Assembly (NCBI GenBank): GCA_965204815.1
Contig: OZ242014.1
Location: forward strand, 1,512,532-1,576,531
Source: Dehalococcoidia bacterium
GTDB lineage: Bacteria > Chloroflexota > Dehalococcoidia > Lucifugimonadales > CATOSD01
Direction of reading: 5' to 3'
Length of the DNA stretch: 64,000 nt
In this document: one piece after another, positions 3,772-27,628 of the stretch
Position numbering within the stretch: position 1 is the stretch's first letter
How the letters are laid out: each line of letters opens with the position of its first letter
Notes under the pieces: generated by a model
The model's input: the letters and a program-made list of their open reading frames with translations, nothing else
What the model was told of the DNA's origin: nothing
Database searches by the model: none
Translations under genes and position numbers: made by a program

Positions 3772-4040
3772 GGCCGTGCTAGGCGGGGAGCTAGCGGTGC
3801 CCTGTACTCGAAACCCGCTTACGCGAGGCTGAATTCCTCTTGGAGGTCGACTTTACGGGGCCACTGCTCCAGGTAGCTGATGTTGAGAGTTGGGTCCTGC
3901 GCGGCGGAGCGCCGTGAACCCCGTCAGGTCCGGAAGGAAGCAGCGGTAAGCGGTTACCTTCGGGCGCCGCAGGCTCGCCTGGCTCGAGTCGGCTCTCTGG
4001 CGTACGCCGCCGGGGGAGATCGAGAAGAGGTGCACGGCCC
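3772..4040 (+). ncRNA. ffs: Signal recognition particle RNA, large (Bacillus scRNA-like, with Alu-like 5' domain)
   Basis: 5' GGCCGTGCTAGGCGGGGAGCTAGCGGTGCCCTGTA resembles the scRNA Alu domain. The conserved helix-8 motif GTCAGGTCCGGAAGGAAGCAGCGGTAAG lies at 3923-3950. The 3' GCACGGCC (4032-4039) pairs with the 5' GGCCGTGC. Confidence 0.8.
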
Positions 4041-8207: not shown

Positions 8208-8313
8208 GTGTGGGGAACCGCCAGTCATTTCTGTAGATGATGGAGTCCATCCAATGGGGACGAAGGCCTCACTCCGTTGGCGCGTCGCCCTTGTAGGAGT
8301 TGCGCGGAAACGA

Positions 8314-8328
8314 GCCTGTGTCAGATTA
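8314..8328. repeat. 15-nt arm GCCTGTGTCAGATTA; perfect inverted partner at 8919-8933
   Basis: Read directly: 8314-8328 GCCTGTGTCAGATTA and 8919-8933 TAATCTGACACAGGC. CGCGGAAAC lies adjacent to each arm. Confidence 0.6.
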
Positions 8329-8384
8329 TCAGGCGGCTTCCACACCAACACTCCTAAGAATGCGGTGACGCGAATTCTGTTAGA

Positions 8385-8900
8385 ATCTGCGACTTTCTGT
8401 GCGACTCCTAGCTGAGAGGGGCGTCGGTCCTGCTCAATTCTGTAATGCTGGCGTGGGCAAATCGTGACAGAATTGTCGCGCGGCGTGGCAGAGTGGGACG
8501 GTGTCAGTGGTCGGTGACCAGTGACCAGTCGTCACCCCCATCCTAACCCGTTCGACTACGCTCAGGGCAGTCTCTTCCCCCCTCGACGGGGGGAAGAGAC
8601 TTTGGAATGGGGCGGGTCGGTCCCGCGGGCGGGTTTGAAGCCCGCCCATATCGTGTACGAGAATAGCACGGATGTACGCACCATGCAAGACCGTTGGCGA
8701 AATTGCGGGAACAGGGCCGAGATTGGGGGTTTGGGGGCGGATTTGTGGACAGAAATTGCGCACGAATGAGAACCGGTGGGACGTGCGTGAGAATGGGTGA
8801 GACACGGATGAGAACGGGTGGCGCGCGAAAGTGACGGTTTTTCGGGGTCGTGGGCGCGAGTGAGCGGGTGTGGGCAGGGCAGGGTGTTCGCGAGAGGGAC
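8385..8900 (+). repeat. Dispersed non-coding repeat, copy A (inverted copy B at 28140-28555)
   Basis: Hand alignment with the reverse complement of 28140-28555. Shared blocks are ACTTTCTGTG, the GGGCGGGTTTGAAGCCCGCCC hairpin, GTTGGCGAA.AT.GCGGGA, three 21-bp TGAGAA..GGTG units and GGTGGCGCG.GAAAGTGACG.TTTTTCGGGGT. Confidence 0.7.
8532..8599 (-). repeat. Member (inverted orientation) of the hairpin + GTTAGGATGGGGGTGA intergenic repeat family
   Basis: TCACCCCCATCCTAAC at 8532-8547. A 12-bp-stem hairpin TCTCTTCCCCCC/GGGGGGAAGAGA lies at 8571-8599. Confidence 0.55.
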
Positions 8901-8950
8901 TGTTATGGGCGCGCCTAGTAATCTGACACAGGCTTCGCGGAAACCGTCGA

Positions 8951-8980
8951 TTTGCACCGCGTTGTAAACGTTGATATATT
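8951..8980 (+). promoter_or_regulatory. Candidate sigma-70-type promoter for the island-1 operon
   Basis: TTTGCA (8951-8956), 18-nt spacer, TATATT (8975-8980), about 40 nt upstream of the methyltransferase ATG. Confidence 0.35.
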
Positions 8981-9019
8981 CTGCTCAAACGCGTGGTTCT
9001 GCATCAAGCGAGAACGTGT

Positions 9020-10330
9020 ATGAGCCGAACAGAGACCCAATCTGTCGAGCAACCCGACTCATGTGTCAGGTTCATTGACCTGTTTGCTGGTTGCGGTGGG
9101 CTGTCTCTTGGATTGATTGAGGCGGGCTGGACAGGACTGTTCGCCATCGAGAAGGATCCAGATGCCTTCAGGACGTTCAAGCACAACCTACTAGATAGGC
9201 CTGGATCGAGTTACGCTTGGCCCGAGTGGTTGCCTGCCACCGCGATGGAGATACAGACCTTTCTTGAGGAATTCCATGAGCACTTGGAAGGTCTAAAAGG
9301 TAATGTAGACTTGATAGTCGGAGGACCTCCCTGTCAAGGTTTTTCGTTTGCGGGCAGGCGTATGGAGAACGATCCCCGCAATCTTGCATTCAAGCACTTC
9401 GTTAGTTCGGTTGAGGTTATACAACCCTCCCTCGTGTTGATTGAAAATGTGCCCGGCATCAAGTCACGTTTTTCTGACAGCGAAGAGTCTAGGCCGTTCA
9501 CCACACTGATACGTGAATCCCTTGAAGAACAGTGCGGGTACACTGTATTTGACCATACCATCAGGGCAGTTGATTTCGGTGTAGCCCAACTCCGACCAAG
9601 ACATTTCATGGTAGGAGTAAAGGGGCGCATCGCCGAGAACCAAGGCATAGAGTTACCTAATCCCTTTGAACTGTTAGAAAAGGGGAGACGCGGTTTTCTT
9701 CACGCGAAGGGCATGAGTGCAGATCGCAAAGTCTCAGTTGAAGAAGCCATATCAGACCTTGAGGTTGGTGACAGTGCAAATGACTTGGTAGATTGCCCTG
9801 ACACTCCTGGCTTTAAGCAGATAAAGTACGGCGCTCCCCAAACGAACTACCAAAGGATGCTCCATCGCGGCTTAGTCGGCGTTTCCCCCAATAGCCTCAG
9901 ACTGGCAAGACATCGACACGAAACGGTAAGCCGGTTCGCTAAGCTAATCGAGACGTGTCGAAAGGGCGTGAACCTGTCCTCGGAGGAAAGGGCTCGGTTT
10001 GATATTCGCAAATCCTCAATAAAGATACTGGATAAGTCTATGCCTTCGCCAACTCTGACTACCCTCCCCGACGACATAATTCACTACTCCGAACCCCGTA
10101 TCCTTACCGTGAGGGAAAGCGCGAGAATCCAGTCTTTTCCAGACTGGTTTGAATTCAAGGGAAAGTACACTACAGGAGGGCACAGGCGTGCTCAGGAGTG
10201 CCCTAGATACACTCAGGTCGCTAATGCCGTACCACCCTTGGTGGCTGAGGCACTCGGCGATACCCTGAAGACGTTGTTAAAGTGCCTTATGGCCGATAGT
10301 TCCAGCGCTGTCAGATGCCAGACATGTTGA
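9020..10330 (+). CDS. DNA (cytosine-5)-methyltransferase
   Basis: Motif I FIDLFAGCGGLSLG, motif IV GGPPCQGFSFAGRR, motif VI ENVPG, motif IX RESARIQSFPDWFEF, motif X ANAVPP. An alternative start at 8993 is possible. Confidence 0.9.
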   Translation: MSRTETQSVEQPDSCVRFIDLFAGCGGLSLGLIEAGWTGLFAIEKDPDAFRTFKHNLLDRPGSSYAWPEWLPATAMEIQTFLEEFHEHLEGLKGNVDLIVGGPPCQGFSFAGRRMENDPRNLAFKHFVSSVEVIQPSLVLIENVPGIKSRFSDSEESRPFTTLIRESLEEQCGYTVFDHTIRAVDFGVAQLRPRHFMVGVKGRIAENQGIELPNPFELLEKGRRGFLHAKGMSADRKVSVEEAISDLEVGDSANDLVDCPDTPGFKQIKYGAPQTNYQRMLHRGLVGVSPNSLRLARHRHETVSRFAKLIETCRKGVNLSSEERARFDIRKSSIKILDKSMPSPTLTTLPDDIIHYSEPRILTVRESARIQSFPDWFEFKGKYTTGGHRRAQECPRYTQVANAVPPLVAEALGDTLKTLLKCLMADSSSAVRCQTC

Positions 10331-10983
10331 CGCTGACACATCAAAGGCTCGAAGAGTTCCGAGGTGCTTTGCTGCCGTGGTTCAAGGAGTACGGGCGGCA
10401 GTTCCATTGGCGGGATCACCATGTTTCCACCTACGAGTTGATCGTCTCGGAGCTTCTCCTTCAACGAACCCAGGCGGACACAGTGAATCGGTTTCTGAGT
10501 ACATTTCTATGTCGATTCCCTTCATGGAGTGAGCTTGCCGAGGAATCCGAAGAATCCTTGGCTTTGTTCCTCAAACCACTTGGCCTATGGAGGCGGCGGG
10601 CGACGACGCTCCACCGTCTGGCTATTGAACTTAAGAAGAGAGACGGGAAATTTCCCGAAGACCGAGTCACCATTGAGTCATTGCCCGGCGTCGGCCAGTA
10701 CATAGCTAACGCAGTTGAGATGTTCTGCCATAGTCGAGCCCGTCCGCTCCTCGACTCAAACATGGCTAGGGTGTTGGAACGCTACTTTGGGCCGAGGAAA
10801 CTGGCTGACATTCGATACGATCCCTACCTGCAATCGTTGGCTGCCAGAGTTGTGAAAGCCACTGATCCGGTTCGTATCAACTGGGCAATCTTGGACTTAG
10901 CTGCCCTAGTGTGCCTGTCTAAGTTGCCAAGTTGCCACGAATGTCCTTTGTCAAAGGCATGCACGTTCGCGCAAGCGGCTTGA
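10315..10983 (+). CDS. HhH-GPD DNA glycosylase, MutY/Mig-like with a 4Fe-4S loop and no MutY C-terminal domain; predicted T:G mismatch repair partner of the m5C MTase
   Basis: YELIVSELLLQRTQ (MutY catalytic Glu context), LPGVGQYIANAV hairpin-helix, LLDSNMARVL (catalytic Asp context), and C-x6-C-x2-C-x5-C (CLSKLPSCHECPLSKAC). 222 aa. Overlaps the MTase stop. Confidence 0.8.
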   Translation: MPDMLTLTHQRLEEFRGALLPWFKEYGRQFHWRDHHVSTYELIVSELLLQRTQADTVNRFLSTFLCRFPSWSELAEESEESLALFLKPLGLWRRRATTLHRLAIELKKRDGKFPEDRVTIESLPGVGQYIANAVEMFCHSRARPLLDSNMARVLERYFGPRKLADIRYDPYLQSLAARVVKATDPVRINWAILDLAALVCLSKLPSCHECPLSKACTFAQAA

Positions 10984-11019
10984 GCGGCAATGAACTCGGT
11001 TGCGAAAAGGAGAGAGTGA

Positions 11020-13320
11020 ATGAGCGAGCGAATCGCGGACATAACGCCGTCGCCCAGAATCCTCAGGATGCTAGGGAGGATAGACTTCCACCAGTGGCAG
11101 TGCCTAGCGGAGCTCATAGACAACGCTGTAGATGCGTTTCTAGTTGGACGAGAATCCGGGCATGGCACCATGTTTCCGCAAGTGAACGTAGAAATCTCTA
11201 GCAATGCTGAAATCTTGCAAGGGATAGGGACTATACGGGTTACAGATAATGCCCCTGGCATGGCATTGGATAAGTTGGAAAGCGCGGTCAGGGCTGGATT
11301 CTCAGGAAACAACTCAGTAGACAAGCTTGGCCTGTTCGGGATGGGTTTCAACGTCGCGACGGCAAGGCTCGGAGCCTGCACAGAGGTGTGGTCCACTAGA
11401 GTTGAAGATGAAGTGTGGAGTGGGGTGCGTATTGATTTTGATGAACTCGAAGAGTCAGGATCATTCGCAACACCATTTCTCCAACGTCCCAAGGCGCCAT
11501 TTGAGCAGCGCAGACATGGAACCGAAATCATAATCTCAAAGCTAGATGTTGAACGCGTCAGATACCTAAGAACCCCTGGAGGACTAAGGGCGACCAGGGA
11601 AAAACTCAGCAGGATTTACAACAAGATTATGAGAGAGGTTGGACTGCGGGTGTTAGTGGCAGACCAACCACTTGCTACGCGGGACTTCTGCGTCTGGGAT
11701 GAGGGCAGGACTGTGCCAAATTCCCGTTTTGGCCGTGTTCCGGCCCGTTTGCCAATTCATCAGGACTTTGGAAACCGGAATTATTGTGAAGACTGCTGGG
11801 TGTGGCTTCTCGAGGCCGAAGAGACGTGTCCTGCATGCAACAGCAGCAGAAACCTCCGTATGCGCAACAGGCAGGTTACTGGATGGATAGGGATACAGAG
11901 ATTCTTCGATCTGGAGGACTATGGAATTGACCTGATCCGAAACGGCAGGATTATCGAGGAACGCACGAAGCACTTCTTTTCGTGGGAGACTCCAGATGGC
12001 GATAGATTGCCTGAGTATCCAATAGAGCAACAGCATTGGGGTGGACGTATAGTCGGTGAACTGAGCATTGACTTTGTGCCACTGGAAGGACACCACAAGG
12101 ATGCATTTGATCACAATACGCAAGAGTGGCGGATGGTATTGGCAGCCGTCCGCGGTCGGGGGCCTATTCTGCCGAACATTAGGAAAGATCGCTTCGGGTA
12201 TGATGACGAGAATGACTCCCCCTTGGCGAGACTTCACTCTGCATACAGGCGAGGTTCGCCTTGCGGCTTAAACACGTTGGTGCCGGGAAACAGTGCTGGA
12301 AAGGGTATCAACACCGAACCTCAGCGGTGGGCAACCCTCTTCTGGGAAGGTAAACCTGATTACCAGTCGGACAAGATATGGCATGACGCAGTTCTCTTTG
12401 GTGAAGAGGCAAGAAACAAGAACAAGGGCAAGAAGCCAAGAGATGACAGGGAAGGAAACGACCTGTTCGACGAACCCGACGAACCAGGTGAAGAAGAGAC
12501 CAAGGAATCACCAAGCACGGATGTGGAACATGAACGTGATCCATTCCTTTCATTTGAGGCAGATCTTCCTGAGATGAGCGGCAGCCCAAGGCTGCGCGTG
12601 CAAACGGAGAGGCTAGTTCGGGGTTCGTTAAGTCAGGGATTGCATCTAGAACTCGCGCCAGTGGGTAACAACTTGACGGTCATTTACGATCCTAACCATG
12701 AGATTTTCACGAAGACTCTCGCTGATCCTCTTGGTTGCGTGTTGGAAGAGTTAGGATATCAATTCCTACAGCGAAGTGGCCAAACACAGGTCAACTGGCC
12801 TATATCTCGGATTGTTCATGAGTTAAGGAAGCGTCACTTCGCTTCGTCATTAGACAGCGTAGAAGAGGTGCGGGCGGAGTCCATAGGGCTGCTGAACGAC
12901 CTCATCGAATGGTACGTAGAAGGACTAATGAGTCTCTCCCCATTGCCTGACGATGAAGTGGATGACGAAGAGCGCGCGCGCGTGGTCCAAGGTGTCGTCC
13001 GCATGGACAGGGCTGGTCTGGAAAGAGCAGCTGAAGTCATTCGAACAGGGCTCTACCCGAAGTACATCGGGCATCAGGTTTTGCCAGCTCTTGTACAGCG
13101 GCGGCCCGAATTGGTGCTTGATGGAAAATTCTTCAGTGTTTCATTCACGGATGTCCCTGAGGAGTTGAGGGCACAAGTTGTTGAGCGAGTTACTACGCCC
13201 ATCCGAGATCTACTTTGGATTGCAGAAACTGACGATGCTGGTGGGTCTGGGAATGAGTGGCGCAACATGCTGGCCCGTGCCGCTGCCAGCTTGCGGCTTC
13301 TGTCAGCTTGGAGGTGCTGA
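11020..13320 (+). CDS. GHKL-superfamily ATPase (HATPase_c_3 / MORC-MutL-like) with internal zinc ribbon and acidic linker
   Basis: N-box ELIDNAVDAF, G1 box VTDNAPGM, G2 box GLFGMGFNVA. Zinc ribbon CEDCWVWLLEAEETCPACN. Acidic tract DLFDEPDEPGEEE. Confidence 0.8.
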   Translation: MSERIADITPSPRILRMLGRIDFHQWQCLAELIDNAVDAFLVGRESGHGTMFPQVNVEISSNAEILQGIGTIRVTDNAPGMALDKLESAVRAGFSGNNSVDKLGLFGMGFNVATARLGACTEVWSTRVEDEVWSGVRIDFDELEESGSFATPFLQRPKAPFEQRRHGTEIIISKLDVERVRYLRTPGGLRATREKLSRIYNKIMREVGLRVLVADQPLATRDFCVWDEGRTVPNSRFGRVPARLPIHQDFGNRNYCEDCWVWLLEAEETCPACNSSRNLRMRNRQVTGWIGIQRFFDLEDYGIDLIRNGRIIEERTKHFFSWETPDGDRLPEYPIEQQHWGGRIVGELSIDFVPLEGHHKDAFDHNTQEWRMVLAAVRGRGPILPNIRKDRFGYDDENDSPLARLHSAYRRGSPCGLNTLVPGNSAGKGINTEPQRWATLFWEGKPDYQSDKIWHDAVLFGEEARNKNKGKKPRDDREGNDLFDEPDEPGEEETKESPSTDVEHERDPFLSFEADLPEMSGSPRLRVQTERLVRGSLSQGLHLELAPVGNNLTVIYDPNHEIFTKTLADPLGCVLEELGYQFLQRSGQTQVNWPISRIVHELRKRHFASSLDSVEEVRAESIGLLNDLIEWYVEGLMSLSPLPDDEVDDEERARVVQGVVRMDRAGLERAAEVIRTGLYPKYIGHQVLPALVQRRPELVLDGKFFSVSFTDVPEELRAQVVERVTTPIRDLLWIAETDDAGGSGNEWRNMLARAAASLRLLSAWRC

Positions 13321-14991
13321 ATGCCGGGGTTCCTCGGAATTGAGCGATTGAGCCTCGGTCCTTGGCAAGCCTTCGAAAGGGCTGTACAGAGGTTGCTAGT
13401 ACATGCTGGGTTCGACGATGTGTTACTTGTGGGCGGAACTGGCGACGGTGGGGCCGATATCACTGCCAACCGCAACAGCCGAACCTTGGTAGTACAGGCA
13501 AAATTTAGATCCAGAGGTACATTACTAGGCACGGACCCCGTGCAGGAGGTGGCGATCGGTGCGGGGAAGTACGATGCACAGATTGCTGTAGTGGCCACAA
13601 ACACTGGATTCACAGAAGCTGCAATTGAACGTGCCGAAGAGTTGGAGTTAGACCTCGGCGTGAAGTTCTTGCTTTGGAACCGTGATTTTCTGTCAATGCG
13701 CTTTCGGCGGTTGGCTCCCTACTCGTCGGAACGGAAGGACCTGCGACCTTACCAAGAAGCCGCGGTGGAGAGAGTCAATTCCAAAATCATGCACGGTGCA
13801 GACAGGGGTCTACTCTTGATGGCGACCGGGCTTGGAAAGACGAGGGTTGCTGCGGGCGTGATTGAACAATGGATTGAAGACCGCCCAAGTGATGAAGTCC
13901 TGGTGTTGTCACCTTCGCGCAGCCTCGTTCCGCAGCTTGAGTCCGAACTTTGGCCTTACCTTCCGAAGTCCGTTGCAACACATGTTCTCACAGGATCCGA
14001 AAAGCCCAGCTTTGAAGGGGGGGTTACCGTTGCAACTGAGCAATCGATGCTTCAACAGTTACCTGATGCTCACGGCCGTTTCGGTCTGGTAATCGTAGAC
14101 GAAGCTCATCACGCGCCTGCCGATGGCTACCGCCGCCTTATTGGGGAACTGGCGCCCAAGTTCCTTTTCGGCATGACTGCAACGCCGTGGAGAAGTGACC
14201 ATCAAAATCTCGAGGAGATTTTCGGCGGACCTACTTACACTGCCAGTATCGTGGATGGTATGCAGCTAGGCTATCTTTCAAAGGTCGACTACCGGATGCT
14301 TGTAGATGACATTAACTGGGACTGGGTAAGAAGCGAATTGGGCGATGGGATCTCAGTTAAGGAACTCAATCGCAAACTGTTTATACCGGAGAGAGATGAA
14401 GCAACGGTTATGAAGATACGCCGGCACTTGGAAGCGGTTCTTGACCCCCGTGCTCTTGTGTTTTGCCGATCCATTTTGCATGCGGAGAGAATCCGGAATC
14501 TCCTCCAAGCGGAGGGTTTGTCAGCGAAGGTCCTACACAGTAAACTGGGTCGCTTCGAATCGGCTGCAACACTGAGGGCGTTTCGTTCAGGTGAAATTCC
14601 AATTCTGGTGACCGTCGACATGGTTAACGAAGGCATTGATATCCCAGACGTCAATCTGATCGTATTCCTCCGGGTGACGCATTCTAGGCGCATCTTTCTT
14701 CAGCAGCTTGGACGAGGGCTTAGGATAACAGAGAGCAAAGACATCGTCCGTGTACTTGATTTTGTGTCGGATGTACGAAGGATTGCTGAAGGTATGCGAA
14801 TCAATCGCGATGCCCTGTCACTGGCAACGAATTCAGACTCCGAGCTGGTTGTATACCCCACGGGCGAAGTCGTGAGTTTTGAGGGTGACAAGAGTCTGGA
14901 TTTCTTTCGAGAGTATCTGGCTGATGTTGCTGAGTTAGAAGAAGGAAACGATGACTCAAAGCTGAAGTTCCCTGCTGTCAGGCGAGCGTAG
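13321..14991 (+). CDS. Mrr-like PD-(D/E)xK restriction endonuclease domain fused to an SF2 DEAH helicase (ResIII + Helicase_C)
   Basis: N-terminus FERAVQRLLVHAGFDDV..GDGGADI..LVVQAKFRS (Mrr_cat pattern). Walker A MATGLGKTRV, VIVDEAHHAP, GMTATPWRSD, and C-terminal QQLGRGLR. The ATG abuts the upstream TGA (TGAATG). Confidence 0.85.
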   Translation: MPGFLGIERLSLGPWQAFERAVQRLLVHAGFDDVLLVGGTGDGGADITANRNSRTLVVQAKFRSRGTLLGTDPVQEVAIGAGKYDAQIAVVATNTGFTEAAIERAEELELDLGVKFLLWNRDFLSMRFRRLAPYSSERKDLRPYQEAAVERVNSKIMHGADRGLLLMATGLGKTRVAAGVIEQWIEDRPSDEVLVLSPSRSLVPQLESELWPYLPKSVATHVLTGSEKPSFEGGVTVATEQSMLQQLPDAHGRFGLVIVDEAHHAPADGYRRLIGELAPKFLFGMTATPWRSDHQNLEEIFGGPTYTASIVDGMQLGYLSKVDYRMLVDDINWDWVRSELGDGISVKELNRKLFIPERDEATVMKIRRHLEAVLDPRALVFCRSILHAERIRNLLQAEGLSAKVLHSKLGRFESAATLRAFRSGEIPILVTVDMVNEGIDIPDVNLIVFLRVTHSRRIFLQQLGRGLRITESKDIVRVLDFVSDVRRIAEGMRINRDALSLATNSDSELVVYPTGEVVSFEGDKSLDFFREYLADVAELEEGNDDSKLKFPAVRRA

Positions 14992-15046
14992 TTGCCTTGC
15001 GAGCCGTCATGTTTCTCCAGATGCCGTTGAAGTTTGCAGAGATAAC

Positions 15047-16531
15047 ATGGTGATCCATGTAAGAATACCTTCATGGACGCCTTGCAAGGTTGACCCAGTC
15101 TCATTCGATTGTAGCGAGTGCGAGATTGGCTGGTCCTCATGCCGACTAAAGACTGACGATAGCCTACGCCATTACTTTGCATCACTGAGCAGACGTCGGA
15201 ATGGAGTCTCCCCAACGTCCTATGGATTCGAGGTCTGGGTTGAGGAACTTGTAGCCAGTTTTCTCGAAACCCACGGATTGAGTGTTACTGCCCAGATCTT
15301 GCTCGAATATCTAGCACCAGAAATTCCACCGGATGTGTCAGAAGCGAAATTGCGCCACATCTTGATGCAGTCTTCGCGCTTCGTGGAAACGTCGCCAGGC
15401 ATGTTTAATCTGGCACCTGGCCGAATCCGGAGTGGGAGTGAGCTACCTGGCCTCACACCTTCTTCGGGGACACTACTAGAGGATTTGCTTTCTCGGGCCA
15501 ACTTGCTCGCCAGAGACGAGCAGTTGGTTAAGTTCAAAAGGCTAGCTGGGTACAGGTTCTTCATTACTCATCATCCCAGAACAAGAGAGATTGCTGCCAA
15601 GACAATTCGGGAGCTGTCGGACTGGGCACTTAACCACCGTGGCTGGAGTGAGTTCGACATCTATAAGTTCGCAGTGGGTCCAGACGGTGTCGCTCAGGCA
15701 GCAAACGATATGCATGATATTGCTTCAGAGGACGACCTTGACAGGACGCATAGATTGTTATCTGCCTTATCGGCGACCGAGTGGGGCGACTTTGGCTCGA
15801 TTGATTCGACTAGAGAAGCCTTCCGCGAATTGAGGGATGAACTGATACTTGCTAATCTCAAGCTAGTATCGTCTCAAGCCATACGATGGGCAAGGGGTCA
15901 GTTCCCAAACTACGCCGATCTCTTTCAGGAGGGGTTTTTTGGACTGACTATAGCAATCGATAGATTCGATCCCTATCGTGGAAACCAATTCTCTACGTAT
16001 GCGACTCCTTGGATCAGGCAGAGGATCACAAGGTCCGTTGCTAACTTCGAGCGCACGATTCGCATTCCCGTTCACTTGCACGATCGCATCAGCGATTTTC
16101 GTCATGCGCTTGACGAACATTATAGGGAACTTGGACACAAGCCTACAGTGAGCGAATTGTCGGCAAGGCTGGGGTGGAACACTGCAGAAGTTGCATTCGC
16201 CCTGAGTAATTTCCAGGAAGTTGATTCACTTGATAGCTTACTGGATGACCCCAGCCGCTCATTTGATGGTGATGCTGCATTCCATGTGAATCCCACTGAG
16301 ATGATCGTTGAGCAGATCGCTACAGAGGATGTTGAGAAAGTCCTGAATGCACTGAATGACAGGGAGGCCAAAATCCTAAGGCTAAGATTTGGACTAGGAG
16401 AAGACGGATACCCCCACACCCTCGAAGAGATAGGCAAAATATATGGGGTTACTCGTGAAAGAATCAGGCAGATTGAGAGCAAGGCAAAGAAGAAAATCTT
16501 GCGGAAGTATCAGTACCGTCACTTCATCTAA
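15047..16531 (+). CDS. Sigma-70 family sigma factor (regions 2, 3, 4; RpoD-like) with a roughly 270-aa N-terminal extension of unknown function
   Basis: Region 2 DLFQEGFFGLTIAIDRFDPYRGNQFSTYATPWIRQRITRSV, region 3 RTIRIPVHL, region 4 TLEEIGKIYGVTRERIRQIESKAKKKIL. Confidence 0.8.
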   Translation: MVIHVRIPSWTPCKVDPVSFDCSECEIGWSSCRLKTDDSLRHYFASLSRRRNGVSPTSYGFEVWVEELVASFLETHGLSVTAQILLEYLAPEIPPDVSEAKLRHILMQSSRFVETSPGMFNLAPGRIRSGSELPGLTPSSGTLLEDLLSRANLLARDEQLVKFKRLAGYRFFITHHPRTREIAAKTIRELSDWALNHRGWSEFDIYKFAVGPDGVAQAANDMHDIASEDDLDRTHRLLSALSATEWGDFGSIDSTREAFRELRDELILANLKLVSSQAIRWARGQFPNYADLFQEGFFGLTIAIDRFDPYRGNQFSTYATPWIRQRITRSVANFERTIRIPVHLHDRISDFRHALDEHYRELGHKPTVSELSARLGWNTAEVAFALSNFQEVDSLDSLLDDPSRSFDGDAAFHVNPTEMIVEQIATEDVEKVLNALNDREAKILRLRFGLGEDGYPHTLEEIGKIYGVTRERIRQIESKAKKKILRKYQYRHFI

Positions 16532-16573
16532 GCCGCCAGTGCCGCAGCTCACTTGCAGAGTGACGCGGCGCCG

Positions 16574-16603
16574 TTGACCGCCGCAACCCACAGGCGATAG
16601 AAT
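16574..16603 (+). promoter_or_regulatory. Candidate promoter for the PHP/acyl-CoA synthetase genes
   Basis: TTGACC (16574-16579), 18-nt spacer, TAGAAT (16598-16603). The same TAGAAT -10 recurs upstream of other backbone genes (34434 region, 59810). Confidence 0.35.
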
Positions 16604-16641
16604 CACCCCGAACCGGCTACTCTGAACAGGGGCGCACCTAC

Positions 16642-17343
16642 TTGCCGATATTCGACCTGCACGTTCACACCGTAAGGGGCAGCAGCGACAGCAGTCTTAC
16701 ACCGGAACAACTGATTTCGGAGGCGCGGAGAATCGGCCTGGATGGGGTGTGCCTGTCCGAGCACGGCGGCGGCTGGGACGACCACGAGGTGCGGCGCGTG
16801 TTCGAGGACTCGGGCCTCACGGTCGTGAGGGGGCTCGAGGTCGACACGGAGATGGGCCACGTGCTGGTATTCGGGATGCACTCCTACGTCGGCGGCATGC
16901 ACCGGGTGAAGGACCTGCGGCACGCTGCCGACCGTGCGGGCGGCTTCCTGGTATCCGCCCACCCCTTTCGTAACCTGTTCAACAACCCGCCATACAATCT
17001 GAACCTGCTGTTTCGGGGCAAGAATGGACGCCCAAGCACGCCCGAACAGGCCGCTCGACATCCGCTGTTTGGTCTGGCAGATGACATCGAGGTCGGCAAC
17101 GGCGCGAACACCGAGCGTGAGAACCTGTTCGCCCTTGAAGTCGCACACATGCTCGGATTCGAGGGGACGGGCGGCAGCGACGCCCACTCGACGCATGGGC
17201 TGGGCAAGTTCGCCACGCAGTTCGATGGCGACATCCGGTCGGAGTCCGATTTCGTGGAGGCGCTCAGGGCGGGCGGGTACAGAGCGGTGCAGGGGCTGCA
17301 CGTGGGCGAGCCACGGGCGTTCGGACTGAATCCCGTCGCGTGA
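16642..17343 (+). CDS. PHP-domain metal-dependent phosphoesterase (paralog of 2908-3771)
   Basis: PIFDLHVHTVRGSSDS and GTGGSDAHS motifs; TTG start per the track. Confidence 0.75.
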   Translation: MPIFDLHVHTVRGSSDSSLTPEQLISEARRIGLDGVCLSEHGGGWDDHEVRRVFEDSGLTVVRGLEVDTEMGHVLVFGMHSYVGGMHRVKDLRHAADRAGGFLVSAHPFRNLFNNPPYNLNLLFRGKNGRPSTPEQAARHPLFGLADDIEVGNGANTERENLFALEVAHMLGFEGTGGSDAHSTHGLGKFATQFDGDIRSESDFVEALRAGGYRAVQGLHVGEPRAFGLNPVA

Positions 17344-19306: not shown

Positions 19307-22123
19307 GTGACACTGCTCCCACCGGGGGTTGCGCCGTCCGAAGAGGTGTGGGTCGCGCTCGACCTTGAGACGACTGGCCTCAGCGCTGAGCGGGACGGCA
19401 TAATCGAGGTCGGCGCGGTGAAGTTTCGCGGCGACGAGATTCTGGACACGTTCAACTCGTTGGTGAACCCTCGCCGCCGCCTGGACGACTTCATCGTCCG
19501 GCTCACCGGCATCAATCAGAACGAGGTCGACCGCGCACCGGAGTTCGGCGCCGTGCGCCGGCAATTCGCCGAGTTCGTGGGCCAGTCCCCCATCGTCGGC
19601 CACAACCTGCGCTTCGACATGGCCTTTCTCGCCAGCCACGGCCTGGCGCTTCCCAACCCGCGCTGCGACACCTGGGACCTGGCCTACGTTCTCTACCCCG
19701 ACCTGCCCGAGTACTCTCTGGAGCGGCTCGCCGACAGATTCGGGGTGCGAAATACGAACCCCCACAGGGCGCTAGCGGACGCGCACGCCACCAGGAACGT
19801 GTTCAACGTGCTTCTGCGCCGCGTGATGGAGTTCGATGCCTTGTCGCTCGCGGAGATGGGCAGGCTGGCGGGCCGCTCGTCGTGGGTGCTGGCATACCTG
19901 CTCGACGGTATCGAGCCGCGCTCGGCTCTGGACGCCGCAACCGCATCCAGCGGCGTGTCCGCTTCCGGCCTGGACATGGACGCGCTCGGCGAGAGGCTCC
20001 AGCAGGAGCGACCCATCCGCCCCAACCAGGCCACCGAGAGGATCGACGTAGAGATGGTGGAGTCGCTGCTACGCTCCGGCAGCCCGCTGGCCGAGGCCAT
20101 GGACGGGTTCGAGGAGCGCCCCGAGCAGATCGCCGTCGCCCGCGCCGTCGCCGAGGCGATCAACGAGGGGCAGCGGCTGGTGGTGGAAGCCGGGACCGGC
20201 GTCGGCAAGTCCGTCGCCTACCTGCTGCCCGCGCTGCTCTACGCCACCGCCAACAACCGGCGCGTGGTGGTGTCCACCAACACAATCAACCTCCAGGAGC
20301 AGCTCGTCGAGAAGGACGTGCCCATGCTGGTCGAGGCGCTGGAGCACGTGCCCGGAGTTGAGGCGGCCGACTCCCGGTTCTGCCAGCTAAAGGGCAGGGC
20401 AAACTATCTGTGCCTGCGGCGCTGGTCGCGTATGAGATCGGGCGACACCCTCAACGAGGACGAGGCGCGGCTGCTTTCCAAGACCTTGGTCTGGCTGGGC
20501 GAGACGTCCACGGGCGACCGGAGCGAGCTTAACCTCGGCCATCGCAGCGCTGCGGCGCCGTGGAGCAGGCTGTCCTCCGAGCGCATGCACGAGTGCCTGG
20601 GCCTGGGCGGGCCGTGCTTCCTCCGCGCGGCTCGCGAGAAGGCCGCCGCGTCTCACGTCGTGGTGGTAAACCATGCACTGTTGCTCTCGGACGTTCTGGC
20701 GGAAGGCTCGCTGCTGCCCGAGTACGACGTGCTGATCGTCGACGAGGCGCACCACCTGGAAGAGGAGGCGACGCGCCGGTTCGGATACGACCTCTCCCAG
20801 GCGGCGCTCCAGGAACACCTGCAGCGAATCGGCGGCGAGCGCGGCCTGCTGCGCGAGGCGGTGGACGCCCTCCGCGGCTCGTCTGTGGCGGCGTCCCGGA
20901 TGGACGCAGCCGAAAAGGCGGCCTCCGACGCTACGGACCTGTCCGGTAGGGCGCTCGGCCACGCAACAAATCTGTTTGCGATGCTGGTGGAGCTGACGCT
21001 CAATCAGGGCGCGTCGAACGACTACCGCGTAACCGGCGCGGATCGCGGGCAGCCGGGCTGGTCCGATCTCGAGACGGTATGGGACAATCTGGACGTCACT
21101 CTGAGCGAACTGGGCGTCGGCCTGCGCAGCGTGAGCGCCGCCATCGACAACCTGGAAGAGGCCAACGTCGACGACTACGCGGGTCTGCGGGGCGAGCTGT
21201 CGGGCGTCACGATGGCCAACGAGGACTTTCGCCGGATGCTCAAGGAGTTCGTGCCGAATCCGCAGGAAACCGGCGTCTACTGGATAAGCAGAAATTTGGC
21301 AAACTCGGACCTGCTGCTGCACATGGCGCCGCTCGACGTTAGCGAGCAACTGGAGGAGAGCCTGTTCTCGGAGAAGGATTGCGTGGTGCTGACGAGCGCG
21401 ACGCTCACCACCGGCGGACGCTTCGACCACGTGAGAGAGCGGCTGGGCCTGGACGACGCGGAGGAGCTGCTGGTCGGCTCGCCGTTCGACTACGAAAACT
21501 CCGTGCTGCTGTGCGTGCCCGAGGACATGCCCGAACCCAACTCCTGGGCGTACCAGGAGGCGCTGGAGCAGGCGGTCAGCGACGTGGCCGTGGCCGCGAA
21601 CGGCAGGACCATGGCGCTCTTCACCTCCCACGCCTCGCTGCGGACCACGGCCCACGCGATTCGCGGCCGGCTCAGCACGCGGGGCATCGGCGTGCTCGCG
21701 CAGGGCCTGGACGGTTCGCCGCAGCAGTTGGTGCGCCGGTTCCTCGAGAACCCCGAGACCGTGCTGCTGGGCACCGCCAGCTTCTGGGAGGGCGTGGACC
21801 TGGCGGGCGAGTCGCTACAGGCGCTGCTGGTGGCGCGGCTGCCCTTCAACGTGCCCACCGAGCCGGTGTTCGAGGCGCGCTCCGAGCAGTTCGAGAACGC
21901 CTTCATGCAGTACGCCCTGCCCCAGGCAATCCTCCGGCTGCGGCAGGGCTTCGGCAGGCTGATTCGCACCAAGACCGACAGGGGCGCGGCGGTCATCCTG
22001 GACAGCCGCCTGGTGTCACGTCGGTATGGCAGGTTGTTCGTGGACTCGCTCCCGCCCGCCACGCGCAAGCGCGTGCCCCTGTACAACCTCGGTGGCGCGG
22101 TCAAGCGCTGGCTGAGGGCGTAG
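19307..22123 (+). CDS. dinG: DinG-family ATP-dependent helicase with N-terminal DEDDh 3'-5' exonuclease domain
   Basis: Exo motifs ALDLETTGL, GHNLRFDMAFL, HRALADAHAT. Helicase motifs EAGTGVGKS and VDEAHHLEE. 938 aa. Confidence 0.85.
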   Translation: MTLLPPGVAPSEEVWVALDLETTGLSAERDGIIEVGAVKFRGDEILDTFNSLVNPRRRLDDFIVRLTGINQNEVDRAPEFGAVRRQFAEFVGQSPIVGHNLRFDMAFLASHGLALPNPRCDTWDLAYVLYPDLPEYSLERLADRFGVRNTNPHRALADAHATRNVFNVLLRRVMEFDALSLAEMGRLAGRSSWVLAYLLDGIEPRSALDAATASSGVSASGLDMDALGERLQQERPIRPNQATERIDVEMVESLLRSGSPLAEAMDGFEERPEQIAVARAVAEAINEGQRLVVEAGTGVGKSVAYLLPALLYATANNRRVVVSTNTINLQEQLVEKDVPMLVEALEHVPGVEAADSRFCQLKGRANYLCLRRWSRMRSGDTLNEDEARLLSKTLVWLGETSTGDRSELNLGHRSAAAPWSRLSSERMHECLGLGGPCFLRAAREKAAASHVVVVNHALLLSDVLAEGSLLPEYDVLIVDEAHHLEEEATRRFGYDLSQAALQEHLQRIGGERGLLREAVDALRGSSVAASRMDAAEKAASDATDLSGRALGHATNLFAMLVELTLNQGASNDYRVTGADRGQPGWSDLETVWDNLDVTLSELGVGLRSVSAAIDNLEEANVDDYAGLRGELSGVTMANEDFRRMLKEFVPNPQETGVYWISRNLANSDLLLHMAPLDVSEQLEESLFSEKDCVVLTSATLTTGGRFDHVRERLGLDDAEELLVGSPFDYENSVLLCVPEDMPEPNSWAYQEALEQAVSDVAVAANGRTMALFTSHASLRTTAHAIRGRLSTRGIGVLAQGLDGSPQQLVRRFLENPETVLLGTASFWEGVDLAGESLQALLVARLPFNVPTEPVFEARSEQFENAFMQYALPQAILRLRQGFGRLIRTKTDRGAAVILDSRLVSRRYGRLFVDSLPPATRKRVPLYNLGGAVKRWLRA

Positions 22124-22125
22124 CC

Positions 22126-22995
22126 GTGCTCATTCCCTTTACCGGTCCTCTCGACCTGATAACCACGCTGGAGAGCGGCCAGGCGTTCCGCTGGCGGCGC
22201 GAGGGCGAATGGCTTACCGGCGTTGTGTTCGAGAACATCATCAGGGCGCGCCAGACGCCGGATGGGGTGGAGTTCGCGTGCGGCCCCGACGACGAGGAGG
22301 CCATCGCGCCGCTGTTCCGGGATTACCTGCGCCTGGACGACGACCTTGAGATGATCCGTGACCGCATTCGCGTGGACGACCGCATCGGGGCCGCGCTGTT
22401 GCGCTATCCCGGACTGCGCGTGCTGCGCCAGGAGCCGTGGGAGTGCCTGGTCTCGTTCATCTGCTCGGCGAACAACAACGTGCCGCGAATCAGTGTCAAC
22501 GTTGAGGACATCGCCGAGAACTTCGGCAGGCCCCTTTCGTTCGGCGAGTGCCGACGCAGCGCGTTCCCCTCTCCAGCCGAGCTGGCACAGGTGGAAGAGC
22601 AGGACCTGCGCGCGCTCGGTCTGGGATTCAGAGCCAAGTACGTCGCGGGGGCGTCCCGCATCGTGGCCGCGGGCGACCTGGACCTGTTCGCGCTGCGCGA
22701 GGCGGACTACGACGAGGCGCTGACGGCGCTGCTTGCGTTGCCGGGAGTAGGCGACAAGGTGGCCAACTGCATTCTGCTCATGTCGCTGGACAAGCGGGAG
22801 GCTTTCCCGGTTGACGTGTGGATAGATCGCGCACTGCGGGAGTGGTACCCGGAGCACGTCATTCGCGCCGATGGCAAGCCACTCACCCGCGCCGCCATGC
22901 GGCCCTGGGCGCAGTCCTACTTCGGCGAGTACGCCGGATACGCCAACCAGTATCTCTTCCAGGGCCGCCGCCTGCTGAATAGGAGCGGAGCATAG
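22126..22995 (+). CDS. ogg: 8-oxoguanine DNA glycosylase/AP lyase (Ogg1-type, HhH-GPD)
   Basis: GTG at 22126, 2 nt after the dinG stop. OGG_N-like LESGQAFRW, HhH-GPD LPGVGDKVANCILL and FPVDVWI. The long track ORF 21379-22995 overlaps dinG out of frame in its first part. Confidence 0.8.
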   Translation: MLIPFTGPLDLITTLESGQAFRWRREGEWLTGVVFENIIRARQTPDGVEFACGPDDEEAIAPLFRDYLRLDDDLEMIRDRIRVDDRIGAALLRYPGLRVLRQEPWECLVSFICSANNNVPRISVNVEDIAENFGRPLSFGECRRSAFPSPAELAQVEEQDLRALGLGFRAKYVAGASRIVAAGDLDLFALREADYDEALTALLALPGVGDKVANCILLMSLDKREAFPVDVWIDRALREWYPEHVIRADGKPLTRAAMRPWAQSYFGEYAGYANQYLFQGRRLLNRSGA

Positions 22996-23055
22996 GGTGC
23001 CGCGAGCGGCGGCGTGGAGGTTGGCGAGGCGTTCTCATACTATTTGCGGATGGGC

Positions 23056-23079
23056 AGGCTGACAAGGGTGGGTCAGCCT
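23056..23079 (+). terminator. Hairpin downstream of ogg (possible terminator), at the left edge of island 2
   Basis: AGGCTGAC (23056-23063) / GTCAGCCT (23072-23079), 8-bp stem, followed by a T/C-rich tract. Confidence 0.4.
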
Positions 23080-23205
23080 TTCCCCAAATCCTTTTTCTCC
23101 TTCAATGAGGAAGGCCAACAGGAGAGCGTAGATTGTAGAAGTCATCAAGTAGCACGTTGTGTATAATGAATCGGCCGCATACTTTGCTATTGGATCGAAC
23201 TCCAA

Positions 23206-24546
23206 ATGACTGACGTACAGGAGATTCTGCTCTCAACAATAGCAGAAAAGCGCCCCTTAATTCTCCTATTGGGCGAAGATGCTTGGAGCGACTCGCCACA
23301 GGGTGATGTCCTTCTGACGTCCGCACTCCAGAGGCTCTATGGGATCACCGAGCAAAGGAGCGGGTGGTCGGGGATGCTCACAGGAGAATCCGTACCCTCT
23401 GGGCATTATGACTGGCTAGCAGAACGCTTTGAGCGACGAAGGCACCCTCCATTTGTCGAAGTGTTGAGGGACCTCCCATGGGGCGCAGTGTTCACATCGT
23501 CGATAGACCCGACGCTCGTGAGGCTGTTTTCATATCGAGGGAGAGAGCCCGAGCCCATCCTAACTGAGGGGGAGCGTCCGCGCGCTGCCCGGAGTACGGT
23601 GCGACCACCCTTATACTATCTGTTTAGTCGCGCAGGTGAGCAGGACTTTAAGGCGCAACCACCAAGCAACCGGCGAGAACTAAACACTCGTCGTGCCCAG
23701 CATGCGGTTCCCTTACTCAACCGAATTCGGGAAACTGCGACGCCCCTAGGCACAATTGTCGTTGACGGGCTGTTGCGGGGAAACGGATGGCTCAGAATCC
23801 AGGATCTGCTAGGTGCACTTGAAGGAGCTTCGGCACATCAGATTCTATGGTTTGGCGGCAAGCCCGATCTACCTCCAGAGGATGCGGACTACTTTACGGA
23901 ACTTGTGCAAGATGGGGAAATAGTCGTTTCGGAAAAGCGACTTGGAACCGTCACTGCTGAGCTCAAAGCTACGGGGTGGCTTGCCGACATCGTTCCACTT
24001 GAATCTGAAGACGCCGGTCAAATCAGCTTCGCATCAGGTGGAGTGTATGAAGTTCCACCTGATGTCCGACTTAGAGTCGAAGCGGTGGCTTCAATCGTCG
24101 ACGACTCTTGGACTTCTTTCCTTCCACCACTCGGGCCAGATTCTAGGTACGATGCATTTCGTAGATTCCACGGTGCCCTAGGTGGGGCTCGACTTCTGGT
24201 AGAGGGTGTCAGAAGAGATTTTGCGATCGAGAGAGACTTTGAGCAACAGCTATCGAAGCAAGTGTTCGCCGCGCTTGCAGATCATTCAAGGCTCGATCTG
24301 CCTATAGTAATCGAAGGCCAATCTGGGGTTGGTAAGTCCGTAGCCTTGGCACGTCTTGTGGCTAAAGTAAGGGAAGAAAAGGCAGCGGCCGTACTCTATT
24401 CGATTGGCCGTGTCCCTCAATCCCAAGAAGTCTCAGGATTTTGCCAGGCGGTTGAGCGATCAGATGCGCCTGTGACGCTGATTGTATGCGATGCCAACAG
24501 GAATATCGACGACTATGACGAACTGTTGAGCGGACTGAGGGCCTAG
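23206..24546 (+). CDS. Island-2 protein A: divergent SIR2-like (SIR2_2-pattern) N-terminal region plus the P-loop NTPase N-half (Walker A/B); likely the 5' part of a split STAND-type gene
   Basis: PLILLLGEDAWS, AVFTSSIDPTLVRLF, PLYYLFS and ILWFGGKPDL mirror the SIR2_2 block order, but GAG, N/D and H positions are substituted. Walker A IEGQSGVGKSVALARL. Walker B VTLIVCDANR sits about 20 aa before the stop. Confidence 0.55.
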   Translation: MTDVQEILLSTIAEKRPLILLLGEDAWSDSPQGDVLLTSALQRLYGITEQRSGWSGMLTGESVPSGHYDWLAERFERRRHPPFVEVLRDLPWGAVFTSSIDPTLVRLFSYRGREPEPILTEGERPRAARSTVRPPLYYLFSRAGEQDFKAQPPSNRRELNTRRAQHAVPLLNRIRETATPLGTIVVDGLLRGNGWLRIQDLLGALEGASAHQILWFGGKPDLPPEDADYFTELVQDGEIVVSEKRLGTVTAELKATGWLADIVPLESEDAGQISFASGGVYEVPPDVRLRVEAVASIVDDSWTSFLPPLGPDSRYDAFRRFHGALGGARLLVEGVRRDFAIERDFEQQLSKQVFAALADHSRLDLPIVIEGQSGVGKSVALARLVAKVREEKAAAVLYSIGRVPQSQEVSGFCQAVERSDAPVTLIVCDANRNIDDYDELLSGLRA

Positions 24547-24635
24547 GGAGACGTGTTGTAGTAGTTGGATCACAGTATCGTGTTTCTGCCAACGAAAGCG
24601 GGGATCAACATCCACGCCTTGAGGCCACGTCTGGC

Positions 24636-26603: not shown

Positions 26604-26604
26604 A

Positions 26605-27492
26605 ATGCAGTTCTCAGAATTGAATGCGGAAGTCGAAAACCTACGCCGGTCACTTAGGAGCTTTGTGGGCGAGAACGCTCTTGAGGAAATCAACGTTCAA
26701 GCTCCGGCACGTTATGACGAGGCCTCGTTTCTTCGCTTAGGTGCGTGGAGCTATGTTCTCATCTTTGAGGCTGGCAGAGTGACGATTCCATTCCTACTTA
26801 AGCTTCCTTCCGGCCTGGGTACGCCGCAGTCCAAAATGAAGGAAACACTCGATCTGGTGCACGATCTCCGTACTTGGAGCTTCCATAACCTGAGTTTTGC
26901 TAGTGAGCGCGAGCTTGAAATGTCGAGGAGGACTACGCTGTGGTTTATAAGAAACTCCGGCTCCAGTCCCCCTAAGGATATCGCAGGATGGAGCCGCAGC
27001 TTTGAGTCCCTTTGTATCGACGTACATGCTATTGTCGCCCACTGTAAAGCTGCGTTCGAATGTGCTTTGTCCTCACCTGAAGACGAGCCGACGATAGTTG
27101 ACGACTTAAATCGCCGAGTGGATCGTAGTTGGCCTGCGTACAGATTCGACGAACTCGTTAGCGACGCCGTTATGCGTATTGGACAGAAGCTCGACGTCCC
27201 TACATTCCGTCAAAGCAGGCTCTCGAAGTGGCGAAACTATCTGCAGACGATTGCGGAGGGCGATGAACCGGAGACACAAATCGTACGCTTCATTGAGCGC
27301 GACGTTCTTGACTATTTTGAATCCGTACTCCCCATTGACGGCAAAGACGTCATGGCAGAGCTAGGTCTGAGCCCCGGACCGGCAGTAGGTAGAGCCTTAA
27401 GCAATGCTCGTCGCCTTTACGGGGCAGGAGTGACTGATCGGAACAAGCTACTAGCCTGTCTTCAAAGGGACGCCGGAAGGTTTACAACTTAA
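26605..27492 (+). CDS. Island-2 protein C: unknown function; possible HEPN-like Rx4H motif and a C-terminal motif resembling the CCA-adding enzyme/poly(A) polymerase C-terminal region
   Basis: ATG at 26605, 1 nt after the protein B stop (TAGAATG). DLRTWSFHN gives R-x4-H. C-terminal DGKDVMAELGLSPGPAVGRALSNARRLY matches the G(K/H)DL..LG..PGP..G pattern. Confidence 0.5.
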   Translation: MQFSELNAEVENLRRSLRSFVGENALEEINVQAPARYDEASFLRLGAWSYVLIFEAGRVTIPFLLKLPSGLGTPQSKMKETLDLVHDLRTWSFHNLSFASERELEMSRRTTLWFIRNSGSSPPKDIAGWSRSFESLCIDVHAIVAHCKAAFECALSSPEDEPTIVDDLNRRVDRSWPAYRFDELVSDAVMRIGQKLDVPTFRQSRLSKWRNYLQTIAEGDEPETQIVRFIERDVLDYFESVLPIDGKDVMAELGLSPGPAVGRALSNARRLYGAGVTDRNKLLACLQRDAGRFTT

Positions 27493-27628
27493 CCATCGAT
27501 ATTGTTGGTTGCGAAAAAGAACAAATCGGGGTGCAGAGCAAATGCTCCGCTCGATCATGCCCACCGTCCGAATTATAGACTTCACCAGCCCAACCGGAAC
27601 CCCTGCGGGGTAAATTGCGGAGAATTGC

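Follow-up and report, generated by a model that had tools for sequence, protein, structure and literature searches.

A five-gene island on a Dehalococcoidia chromosome, occupying positions 8208–16641 of a window of 64,000 nt (contig OZ242014.1 of assembly GCA_965204815.1, the whole stretch that was analyzed and to which all positions refer), encodes a Dcm-type DNA cytosine-5 methyltransferase, a Mig-type mismatch glycosylase, a MORC-like GHKL ATPase, an Mrr-type nuclease fused to a superfamily 2 (SF2) helicase and a sigma-70-family protein. The reading that we favor, with a confidence only just above even, is that the island is a mobile, ATP-dependent defense module of the restriction-modification (R-M) type built on 5-methylcytosine (m5C). 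The core of the island is of a known kind that was predicted computationally in 2008; new here are the Mig-type glycosylase in the place of Vsr, the lack of an extra Type II endonuclease and a dedicated putative sigma factor with a new N-terminal domain, which is the most unusual component of the island.

In the working model that we infer, which extends to every activity, the direction in which methylation is discriminated, the source of specificity and the role of the sigma factor, Dcm would constitutively mark host DNA as self. The Mig-type glycosylase would fill the job of Vsr, removing the T from T:G mismatches left by m5C deamination and so limiting the mutational cost of the methylase. 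The GHKL ATPase and the Mrr-nuclease::SF2 translocase, whose genes are translationally coupled and always occur as a pair, would form the restriction component: a GHKL dimer would close on DNA in an ATP-dependent manner, by analogy with MORC and MutL, and license the helicase-nuclease, which by analogy with HsdR and the Type ISP enzymes would translocate and cut DNA that lacks the methyl mark. The sigma factor most likely controls expression of the island.

Gene content of the island

Based on the list of open reading frames (ORFs) and their translations, the island contains five genes, all of them co-directional on the + strand. The sequence-only reading that preceded this analysis had counted four co-directional genes; it was right about the common direction, but it had overlooked the fifth gene (sigma-70 family, 15047–16531), the Mrr-helicase gene ending at 14991. 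The guanine-plus-cytosine (GC) content is ~0.51 in the island versus 0.66 in the flanks, and the profile drops from 0.65–0.69 in the flanks to 0.49–0.55 between ~8.5 and 16.5 kb, in agreement with the AT-richer block of ~8.4 kb that had been described. This AT-rich five-gene island is horizontally acquired. Two of the gene junctions are tight, exactly as had been reported: the stop of the Dcm gene (10330) and the ATG of the glycosylase gene (10315) overlap by 16 nt, and the GHKL stop and Mrr-helicase start abut in a TGAATG at 13318–13323. Ribosome-binding sites (AGGAG/GGAGG) are situated ahead of genes 3 (GHKL, AGGAG) and 4 (Mrr-helicase).

The methylase and the Mig-type glycosylase

The first gene (9020–10330, + strand) encodes the Dcm-type DNA cytosine-5 methyltransferase of 436 aa, which matches PF00145 (7.4e-49), TIGR00675 (135.6 bits, cut-off 100.65) and the PADLOC model MTase_II (3.7e-77). 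Its start is the ATG at 9020, and the 436-aa product matches the record in the protein collection. The catalytic motifs are intact, with FAGCGG, PPCQ, ENV, QLRPR and NAVPP all present in the translation.

The second gene (10315–10983, + strand) encodes an HhH-GPD mismatch glycosylase of 222 aa, as determined by its similarity to PF00730 (6e-11) and by an end-to-end match (8–216 of 221) to the PADLOC "Type II nicking endonuclease" model at 3.7e-28. In the PDB it is about equally similar to the MutY catalytic domain (3.9e-30) and, over the full length, to 1kea, a 221-aa "possible G-T mismatches repair enzyme" (5.9e-28). The protein consists of the MutY catalytic core without the C-terminal 8-oxoguanine domain of MutY; both the catalytic Asp and the Cx6Cx2Cx5C loop of the iron-sulfur (4Fe-4S) cluster are retained. 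At the positions of Escherichia coli MutY (EcMutY) V45 and Q182, which are regarded as determinants of adenine specificity and which are occupied by A50 and L187 in Mig.MthI (PMC2714593), the window protein has Ala and Trp, respectively. This pattern is conserved in the homologs that are linked to the system, in which Gln is absent from the Q182 position in 22/22 and Ala is found at the V45 position in all 21 of the 21 that cover it. Because of these conserved pocket residues the protein is, judged by its sequence, better labeled Mig-like than MutY-like, and the earlier claim of a Mig-type glycosylase instead of Vsr still stands. The pocket residues alone are no proof of T:G activity, however, since EcMutY V45A/Q182L mutants gained no T/G activity (PMC2714593).

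The GHKL ATPase and the nuclease-helicase

The third gene (11020–13320, + strand) encodes a MORC-like GHKL + S5 ATPase of 766 aa, into which a Cys4 zinc ribbon is inserted. It has similarity to HATPase_c_3 (1.4e-8, Pfam), and in 51 homologs the Bergerat motifs (E31/N35/D38, D76...G80 and G104–G109), K360 of the S5 domain and the CxxC...CxxC of the zinc ribbon (C256, C259, C270 and C273) are all invariant. An AlphaFold2 (AF2) model of the protein has a mean predicted local distance difference test (pLDDT) score of 85, and its best Foldseek matches in the PDB are the ATPase modules of MORC2, MORC3 and MORC4 (1e-12), followed by SMCHD1 and Hsp90. No match was found for the last ~270 residues, which form a small beta unit and a helical bundle in the model, and no PADLOC v2 model matches the protein.

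The fourth gene (13321–14991, + strand) encodes a 556-aa protein in which an Mrr-type PD-(D/E)xK nuclease (residues ~1–125) is fused to an XPB/HsdR-like SF2 DExH translocase, with Pfam matches to Mrr_cat (6e-16), ResIII (3e-32) and Helicase_C (9e-18). Its relatives in the PDB are 7clg (a 953-aa putative helicase, which we take to be SauUSI-like; 2.7e-29), XPBII (4e-25), the HsdR structure 3h1t (1e-21) and Rad25 (5e-21). It also matches the junction between nuclease and motor in LlaBIII, a Type ISP enzyme (1.9e-8), and, partially, EcoAI HsdR (8e-37; 127 bits, cut-off 550), and its best PADLOC match is mREase_IV (4e-39). Residues D42, D46, Q59 and K61 of the nuclease and the GLGK173, DEAH260-263, TATP and QQLGRGLR motifs of the motor are at least 97% conserved across 79 loci. 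Overall, the Pfam, PADLOC and NCBIfam matches agree with the families to which the sequence-only reading had assigned these four proteins (Dcm, MutY-core glycosylase, GHKL with zinc ribbon and Mrr::helicase).

Synteny and co-occurrence in related loci

The GHKL family is large: of the 8,000 candidates scored, 2,622 protein clusters reached E ≤ 1e-5, and at least 500 relatives were confirmed among GTDB species genomes. These relatives occur in Chloroflexota, Actinomycetota (many of them Streptomyces), Alpha- and Gammaproteobacteria, Bacteroidota, Planctomycetota and a methanogen, a Methanoregula. The family is also present on seven plasmids; no phage-borne GHKL homologs were found.

To survey the gene neighborhoods, the six-frame ORFs of 88 loci were searched with the window proteins; 85 loci have enough downstream sequence and 66 have full flanks, a few of these being near-duplicate contigs. 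The synteny of the central pair is strict, as the next gene after GHKL is that of the Mrr-helicase in 85/85 loci, and the sequence-only reading, which had put forward the co-occurrence of this pair as a check on its proposal, is confirmed in this respect. This strict pairing, along with the translational coupling of the two genes, points to an ATP-dependent enzyme of two subunits. In 65/66 of the full-flank loci there is a Dcm gene no more than ~6 kb away, and so near-universal a linkage to a C5 methylase speaks for methylation as a part of the logic of the system. The only locus without a Dcm gene, L065 (8074–11887), has an interrupted GHKL gene.

These counts bear on an explanation in which the island holds two independent neighbors: a cassette of Dcm and T:G repair, sometimes a full Type II R-M system, and beside it a separate Type IV-like GHKL + Mrr-helicase system that attacks foreign modified DNA, the two being together only through the clustering of defense genes. 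The Type IV enzyme Mrr has Mrr_cat as its catalytic domain, the best matches of the nuclease-helicase are to mREase_IV in PADLOC and 7clg in the PDB, and the position and orientation of Dcm vary among the loci, its cassette having been exchanged independently of the core, all of which is consistent with such independence. By a rough estimate based on the few Dcm genes per genome, however, chance clustering would account for well under 1% of loci, against the 65 of 66, spread over several phyla, in which Dcm is within 6 kb, and the sole exception is the locus with the interrupted GHKL gene. In addition, an m5C-dependent nuclease next to an active Dcm would be self-toxic unless their specificities differ. 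We regard two independent neighbors as an unlikely explanation of the island.

Of the 66 loci, 60 encode a T:G repair enzyme, which is either Vsr (44 loci) or an HhH-GPD glycosylase (16 loci), never both, from which we conclude that the two enzymes are functionally equivalent. So tight a linkage of T:G repair implies that the host is chronically methylated, which fits the methyl mark as the sign of "self" in the restriction reading.

The same near-obligate linkage of Vsr or Mig is what might be expected of a mobile T:G repair module resembling MutL/MutH/UvrD, in which Mig or Vsr would incise, the GHKL protein would act as matchmaker and the helicase-nuclease would remove the T strand, so that a selfish Dcm is made tolerable. 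MvaI/BcnI enzymes are MutH-like, and an MvaI/BcnI-like endonuclease gene follows the helicase gene in 10/66 loci. Streptomyces, in which the system is common, is to our knowledge without MutSL, and this too would suit a repair function. VSP (very short patch) repair and base-excision repair need no dedicated nuclease-translocase, though, and the coupling of a PD-(D/E)xK nuclease with a motor of the HsdR/XPB type is the architecture of a restriction enzyme. Further points against a repair module are that many relatives have bona fide homologs of Type II restriction endonucleases (REases), and that the system occurs sporadically and in islands, is also carried on plasmids and has defense genes as neighbors. 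A parallel with MutL and the UvrD helicase in mismatch and VSP repair was stressed by Iyer et al. (2008), and it counts in favor of repair; on balance we consider a repair module quite improbable.

The neighbors in related loci are defense or mobile genes (AbiE, BrxR/WYL, HEPN/MNT, RES, KAP NTPase and transposases). In distant clades (30–35% identity; Streptomyces, Rhodobacterales, Rhizobiales and others, for example L033, L034, L040, L045 and ~35 more), two further conserved genes lie directly downstream of the Mrr-helicase gene. The first encodes a protein of ~175–200 aa without a Pfam or PADLOC match (39 loci). The second encodes one of two proteins: a PIN_8 protein of ~370 aa in 12 loci, and in 24 loci a protein of ~450 aa with an N-terminal helix-turn-helix (HTH) similar to sigma-70 region 4. 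An Eco29kI-like GIY-YIG endonuclease gene is often found between Dcm and Vsr in these clades, and the accessory proteins of the relatives had no PADLOC match.

Some loci show features of their own. Decaying copies were seen in L071 (8038–12143), where the GHKL gene is broken up into five ORFs and that of the helicase into two, in L092 (2476–4150), where the helicase gene is split, and in L065 with its interrupted GHKL gene. In one lineage (L006/L007, 12988–13602) a gene similar to dCMP/cytidine deaminases stands right after the glycosylase gene, and in another (L089, 1605–2114; L090, 333–842) an HNH_2 gene is located upstream of Dcm.

The sigma factor

The fifth gene (15047–16531, + strand) encodes a sigma-70-family protein of 494 aa in which regions 2, 3 and 4 all score above their Pfam cut-offs, with 47.6 (24), 25.5 (25.3) and 61.8 (24.1) bits (cut-offs in brackets), respectively. 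It matches RpoD at 1.3e-59, but scores only 181–203 bits with the RpoD models, whose cut-offs are 354–572, and it falls short of an RpoD equivalog. Over the C-terminal 240 residues it shares ~45% identity with primary sigma factors, and from about residue 130 onwards the AF2 model superposes on SigA in RNA polymerase holoenzymes, which are its top Foldseek matches. The body of the protein is SigA-like over regions 1.2 to 4.2, and the motifs for contacting DNA are conserved, namely TRERIRQIE (–35, region 4.2) and WIRQxITR (–10, region 2.4).

In the place of region 1.1, the protein has a Cys4 motif (C13, C22, C25 and C32) and a predicted winged helix (residues 59–122), at the end of which is an invariant SPxMF hairpin (SPGMF in the window). 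This N-terminal domain had no Pfam match even at E ≤ 10 and none in a profile search against the PDB. We also considered a HARE-HTH identity for the winged helix; it was unconfirmed, as the Pfam and PDB profile searches were blank and hhalign gave a probability of 0.4% against an approximate Bacillus subtilis RpoE sequence.

When 1.84 billion representative proteins were searched exhaustively with HMMER, only 50 sequence clusters were found to be related to the N-terminal 250 residues at E ≤ 1e-3. A word-indexed protein search with the N-terminal 255 residues was blank even though the exact protein is in the collection, and since the exhaustive search found those 50 relatives, a negative from the indexed search does not signify absence. 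A metagenome scan with N-terminal patterns of the protein gave no confirmed relative. Wherever the context of a homolog could be read, its gene is directly downstream of the GHKL-Mrr-helicase pair, in otherwise unrelated chromosomal settings, and the gene is present in 7/66 loci of the survey. Based on these searches, the protein is a rare, system-specific member of the sigma-70 family that is confined to this subclade and whose N-terminal domain is new.

The sigma gene occupies the operon slot that is taken in sister loci by the MvaI/BcnI-like endonuclease gene. In one Dehalococcoidia locus (L021, 14041–16788), both a sigma gene, matching over its C-terminal half only, and an MvaI/BcnI-like gene follow the helicase gene, while elsewhere these two alternate.

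One possibility is that the sigma protein is a working immune part rather than a regulator: a subunit for DNA recognition or targeting, a decoy or guard for sensing anti-sigma factors of phages or factors that take over RNA polymerase, or a coupler of the GHKL-nuclease-helicase to initiation complexes on unmethylated DNA. The basis for this proposal is that the SigA-like body has been kept and is predicted to be able to bind core RNA polymerase and –35/–10 DNA, that the Cys4 and winged-helix module stands in for region 1.1, and that the gene has the slot of the endonuclease gene of sister loci. We consider an immune part improbable, and control of expression remains our preferred role for this protein.

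A dedicated transcription factor would also be expected in an inducible self-targeting (abortive-infection) system, in which the sigma factor switches the operon on at infection, Dcm methylates the DNA and the Mrr-type nuclease then attacks what has just been methylated. There is precedent in a 2025 preprint that proposes such a model for Ambrosia, described as an operon of a regulated methyltransferase, an HATPase and a Type IV nuclease in which methylation is not protective, and in the island, too, a nuclease of the Mrr type adjoins a methylase. The sigma gene, however, is found in only a minority of loci (7/66), and the T:G repair enzyme in 60/66 is sensible only with a chronically methylated host. 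Moreover, the island encodes a GHKL + S5 ATPase of the MORC type and no histidine kinase that would act through a response regulator. Taken together, we find self-targeting very improbable for this family.

Evidence that weighs against restriction

Several observations do not sit easily with the R-M reading, and we collect them here. The window is without a recognizable specificity subunit. The Dcm cassette has been swapped without regard to the core, as illustrated by two Rhodobacterales loci, L020 and L022, in which the normalized bits are 0.82 for the core and 0.12 for Dcm, and of which one has Vsr and the other the glycosylase. Likewise, the C-terminal region of the GHKL protein tracks Dcm no better than does the N-terminal region (Spearman 0.54 vs 0.58), and so gives no sign of a co-evolving specificity. 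Many relatives have extra genes similar to Type II REases (MvaI/BcnI-like in 10 loci, Eco29kI-like in others), which raises the prospect that the GHKL-helicase pair is an adjunct to a Type II system and not the restriction enzyme itself. The best matches of the nuclease-helicase (Mrr_cat, mREase_IV in PADLOC and 7clg in the PDB) are typical of modification-dependent enzymes. Among the sigma-bearing loci there is no shared sigma-70-like promoter upstream of Dcm, which would have supported sigma autoregulation. Finally, no experimental test of any family member was found in the full-text literature.

Relationship to known systems

The closest described relatives of the island are the type 1 MORC/paraMORC operons of Iyer, Abhiman and Aravind (2008), a computational study in which MORC, a Rad25-like SFII helicase with a restriction endonuclease (RE)-fold nuclease, a cytosine methylase and Vsr were predicted to constitute R-M systems, and to which the sequence-only reading had accurately attributed the prediction of such GHKL operons. 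The island has the GHKL + S5 ATPase, the adjacent XPB/Rad25-like helicase with an N-terminal RE-fold nuclease, the linked C5 methylase and a T:G repair enzyme, and like the type 1 operons it is laterally mobile. Unlike them, it has no Vsr, with a Mig-type glycosylase instead, and it has a dedicated sigma factor in addition; neither "glycosylase" nor "sigma" occurs in the text of Iyer et al. (2008; 0 occurrences each). In our working model, the parts given to the methylase, the repair enzyme and the ATPase with its nuclease-translocase agree with the proposal of Iyer et al. (2008) for those operons.

A GHKL ATPase and a long sigma-70-family protein are also found together in the defense operon MZA (mzaABCDE), which is described as a validated anti-phage system and whose MzaA is a sigma factor (PMC9523054). 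The best NCBIfam match of the window sigma protein is in fact to MzaA (NF041931; 2.4e-61), but the score of 208.5 bits is far below the cut-off of 800 and the match covers model positions 467–701 only. As these are generic sigma regions, the likeness to MZA is architectural, and we rejected membership; longer members of the sigma family likewise score only 125–284 bits.

In the nuclease-helicase, an N-terminal Mrr-like PD-(D/E)xK nuclease precedes an SF2 dsDNA-translocase motor, as it does in Type I HsdR and in the Type ISP enzymes LlaGI and LlaBIII. In contrast to those systems, the window has neither HsdS and HsdM nor a fused N6-adenine methylase with a target-recognition domain; its methylase is a separate C5 enzyme, and its nuclease-helicase has an obligatory GHKL partner. 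Of the three Type I components HsdR, HsdM and HsdS, it thus has only a partial HsdR-like match, with scores far below the equivalog cut-offs.

A C5 methylase adjoining a repair enzyme for deaminated m5C is known from Dcm-Vsr of E. coli and from M.MthTI-Mig.MthI of the Methanothermobacter plasmid pFV1. Those pairs stand alone or with a Type II REase, whereas the window pair is embedded with the GHKL, nuclease-helicase and sigma genes, and its glycosylase, although it aligns from end to end with the Mig structure 1kea, differs from Mig.MthI in having Trp where the latter has Leu187. Control of a PD-(D/E)xK nuclease by a GHKL module has been demonstrated experimentally in phage defense for the GHKL-Shedu protein VcSduA (formerly paraMORC3). 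This protein differs in being a single polypeptide with a DUF4263 nuclease, and it has no helicase, methylase or repair enzyme. Similarity to the Type IV enzymes (Mrr/SauUSI type) is real for both Mrr_cat and the SauUSI-like helicase, yet a methylase is linked in 65/66 loci, which argues against Type IV membership. PADLOC alone would see only MTase_II, a "nicking endonuclease" and a Type IV-like helicase. The earlier claim that the island corresponds to no already characterized system is upheld in so far as the GHKL protein had no PADLOC v2 match and full-text literature searches gave no experimental study.

Boundaries of the island and its surroundings

The island begins with a non-coding leader of ~810 bp (8208–9019) that has no ORF with a Pfam match and no Rfam match. 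Most of the leader is bracketed by a pair of 23-nt inverted repeats (8313–8335 and 8912–8934; 91% complementary, 576 nt apart), and a perfect 14-bp, G/C-rich hairpin is situated between the two arms (8569–8601). In appearance the repeat pair resembles a small non-autonomous element or the scar of an insertion. We rejected a miniature inverted-repeat transposable element (MITE) identity for the 8313/8934 repeat as unsupported, based on the fact that the window has two copies only and that metagenome matches were single and at chance level (16-mer). A sigma-70-like promoter match, at consensus level only, is present at 8951–8980 (TTTGCA-18-TATATT with TG), 40 nt upstream of the Dcm start. At the downstream boundary (16532–16641), the GC content is back at host level and a promoter-like site (16574–16603) is found ahead of the gene for a PHP-domain protein.

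The upstream flank gene encodes a carboxyltransferase, and downstream are the genes for the PHP-domain protein (16642–17343), an acetyl-CoA synthetase and a DinG-like helicase. As these are ordinary metabolic genes, the five-gene block is an inserted island.

Ordinary host chromosomal features elsewhere in the window include a bacterial large signal recognition particle (SRP) RNA (3774–4037, 186 bits), tRNA-Ser(TGA) (61857–61944) and the 938-aa DinG-type helicase, which has an N-terminal RNase T-like exonuclease (19307–22123). A second AT-richer island (GC 0.51–0.55) lies at ~22900–27500 and may be another defense island. It has three ORFs on the + strand, the first of which (23206–24546) has a weak match to nSTAND_NTPase5 (novel STAND NTPase; 1e-7, below the cut-off), while the other two (24636–26603 and 26530–27492) are without a Pfam match.

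Significance

The island represents a large and widespread family that was predicted to be restriction systems in 2008 and for which there is no PADLOC v2 model. The window variant is compact, having five genes and lacking an additional Type II endonuclease, and the family is also of interest because its T:G repair slot is filled by either of two enzymes of unrelated folds. The rare, system-specific and SigA-like sigma factor offers a tractable way into the question of why restriction should need a sigma factor of its own; if it were to prove an immune part, it would, together with MzaA, establish sigma-factor-dependent DNA restriction as a class. The means by which a MORC-like clamp distinguishes methylated from unmethylated DNA would also be directly relevant to the eukaryotic MORC proteins, which are involved in methylation-linked silencing.

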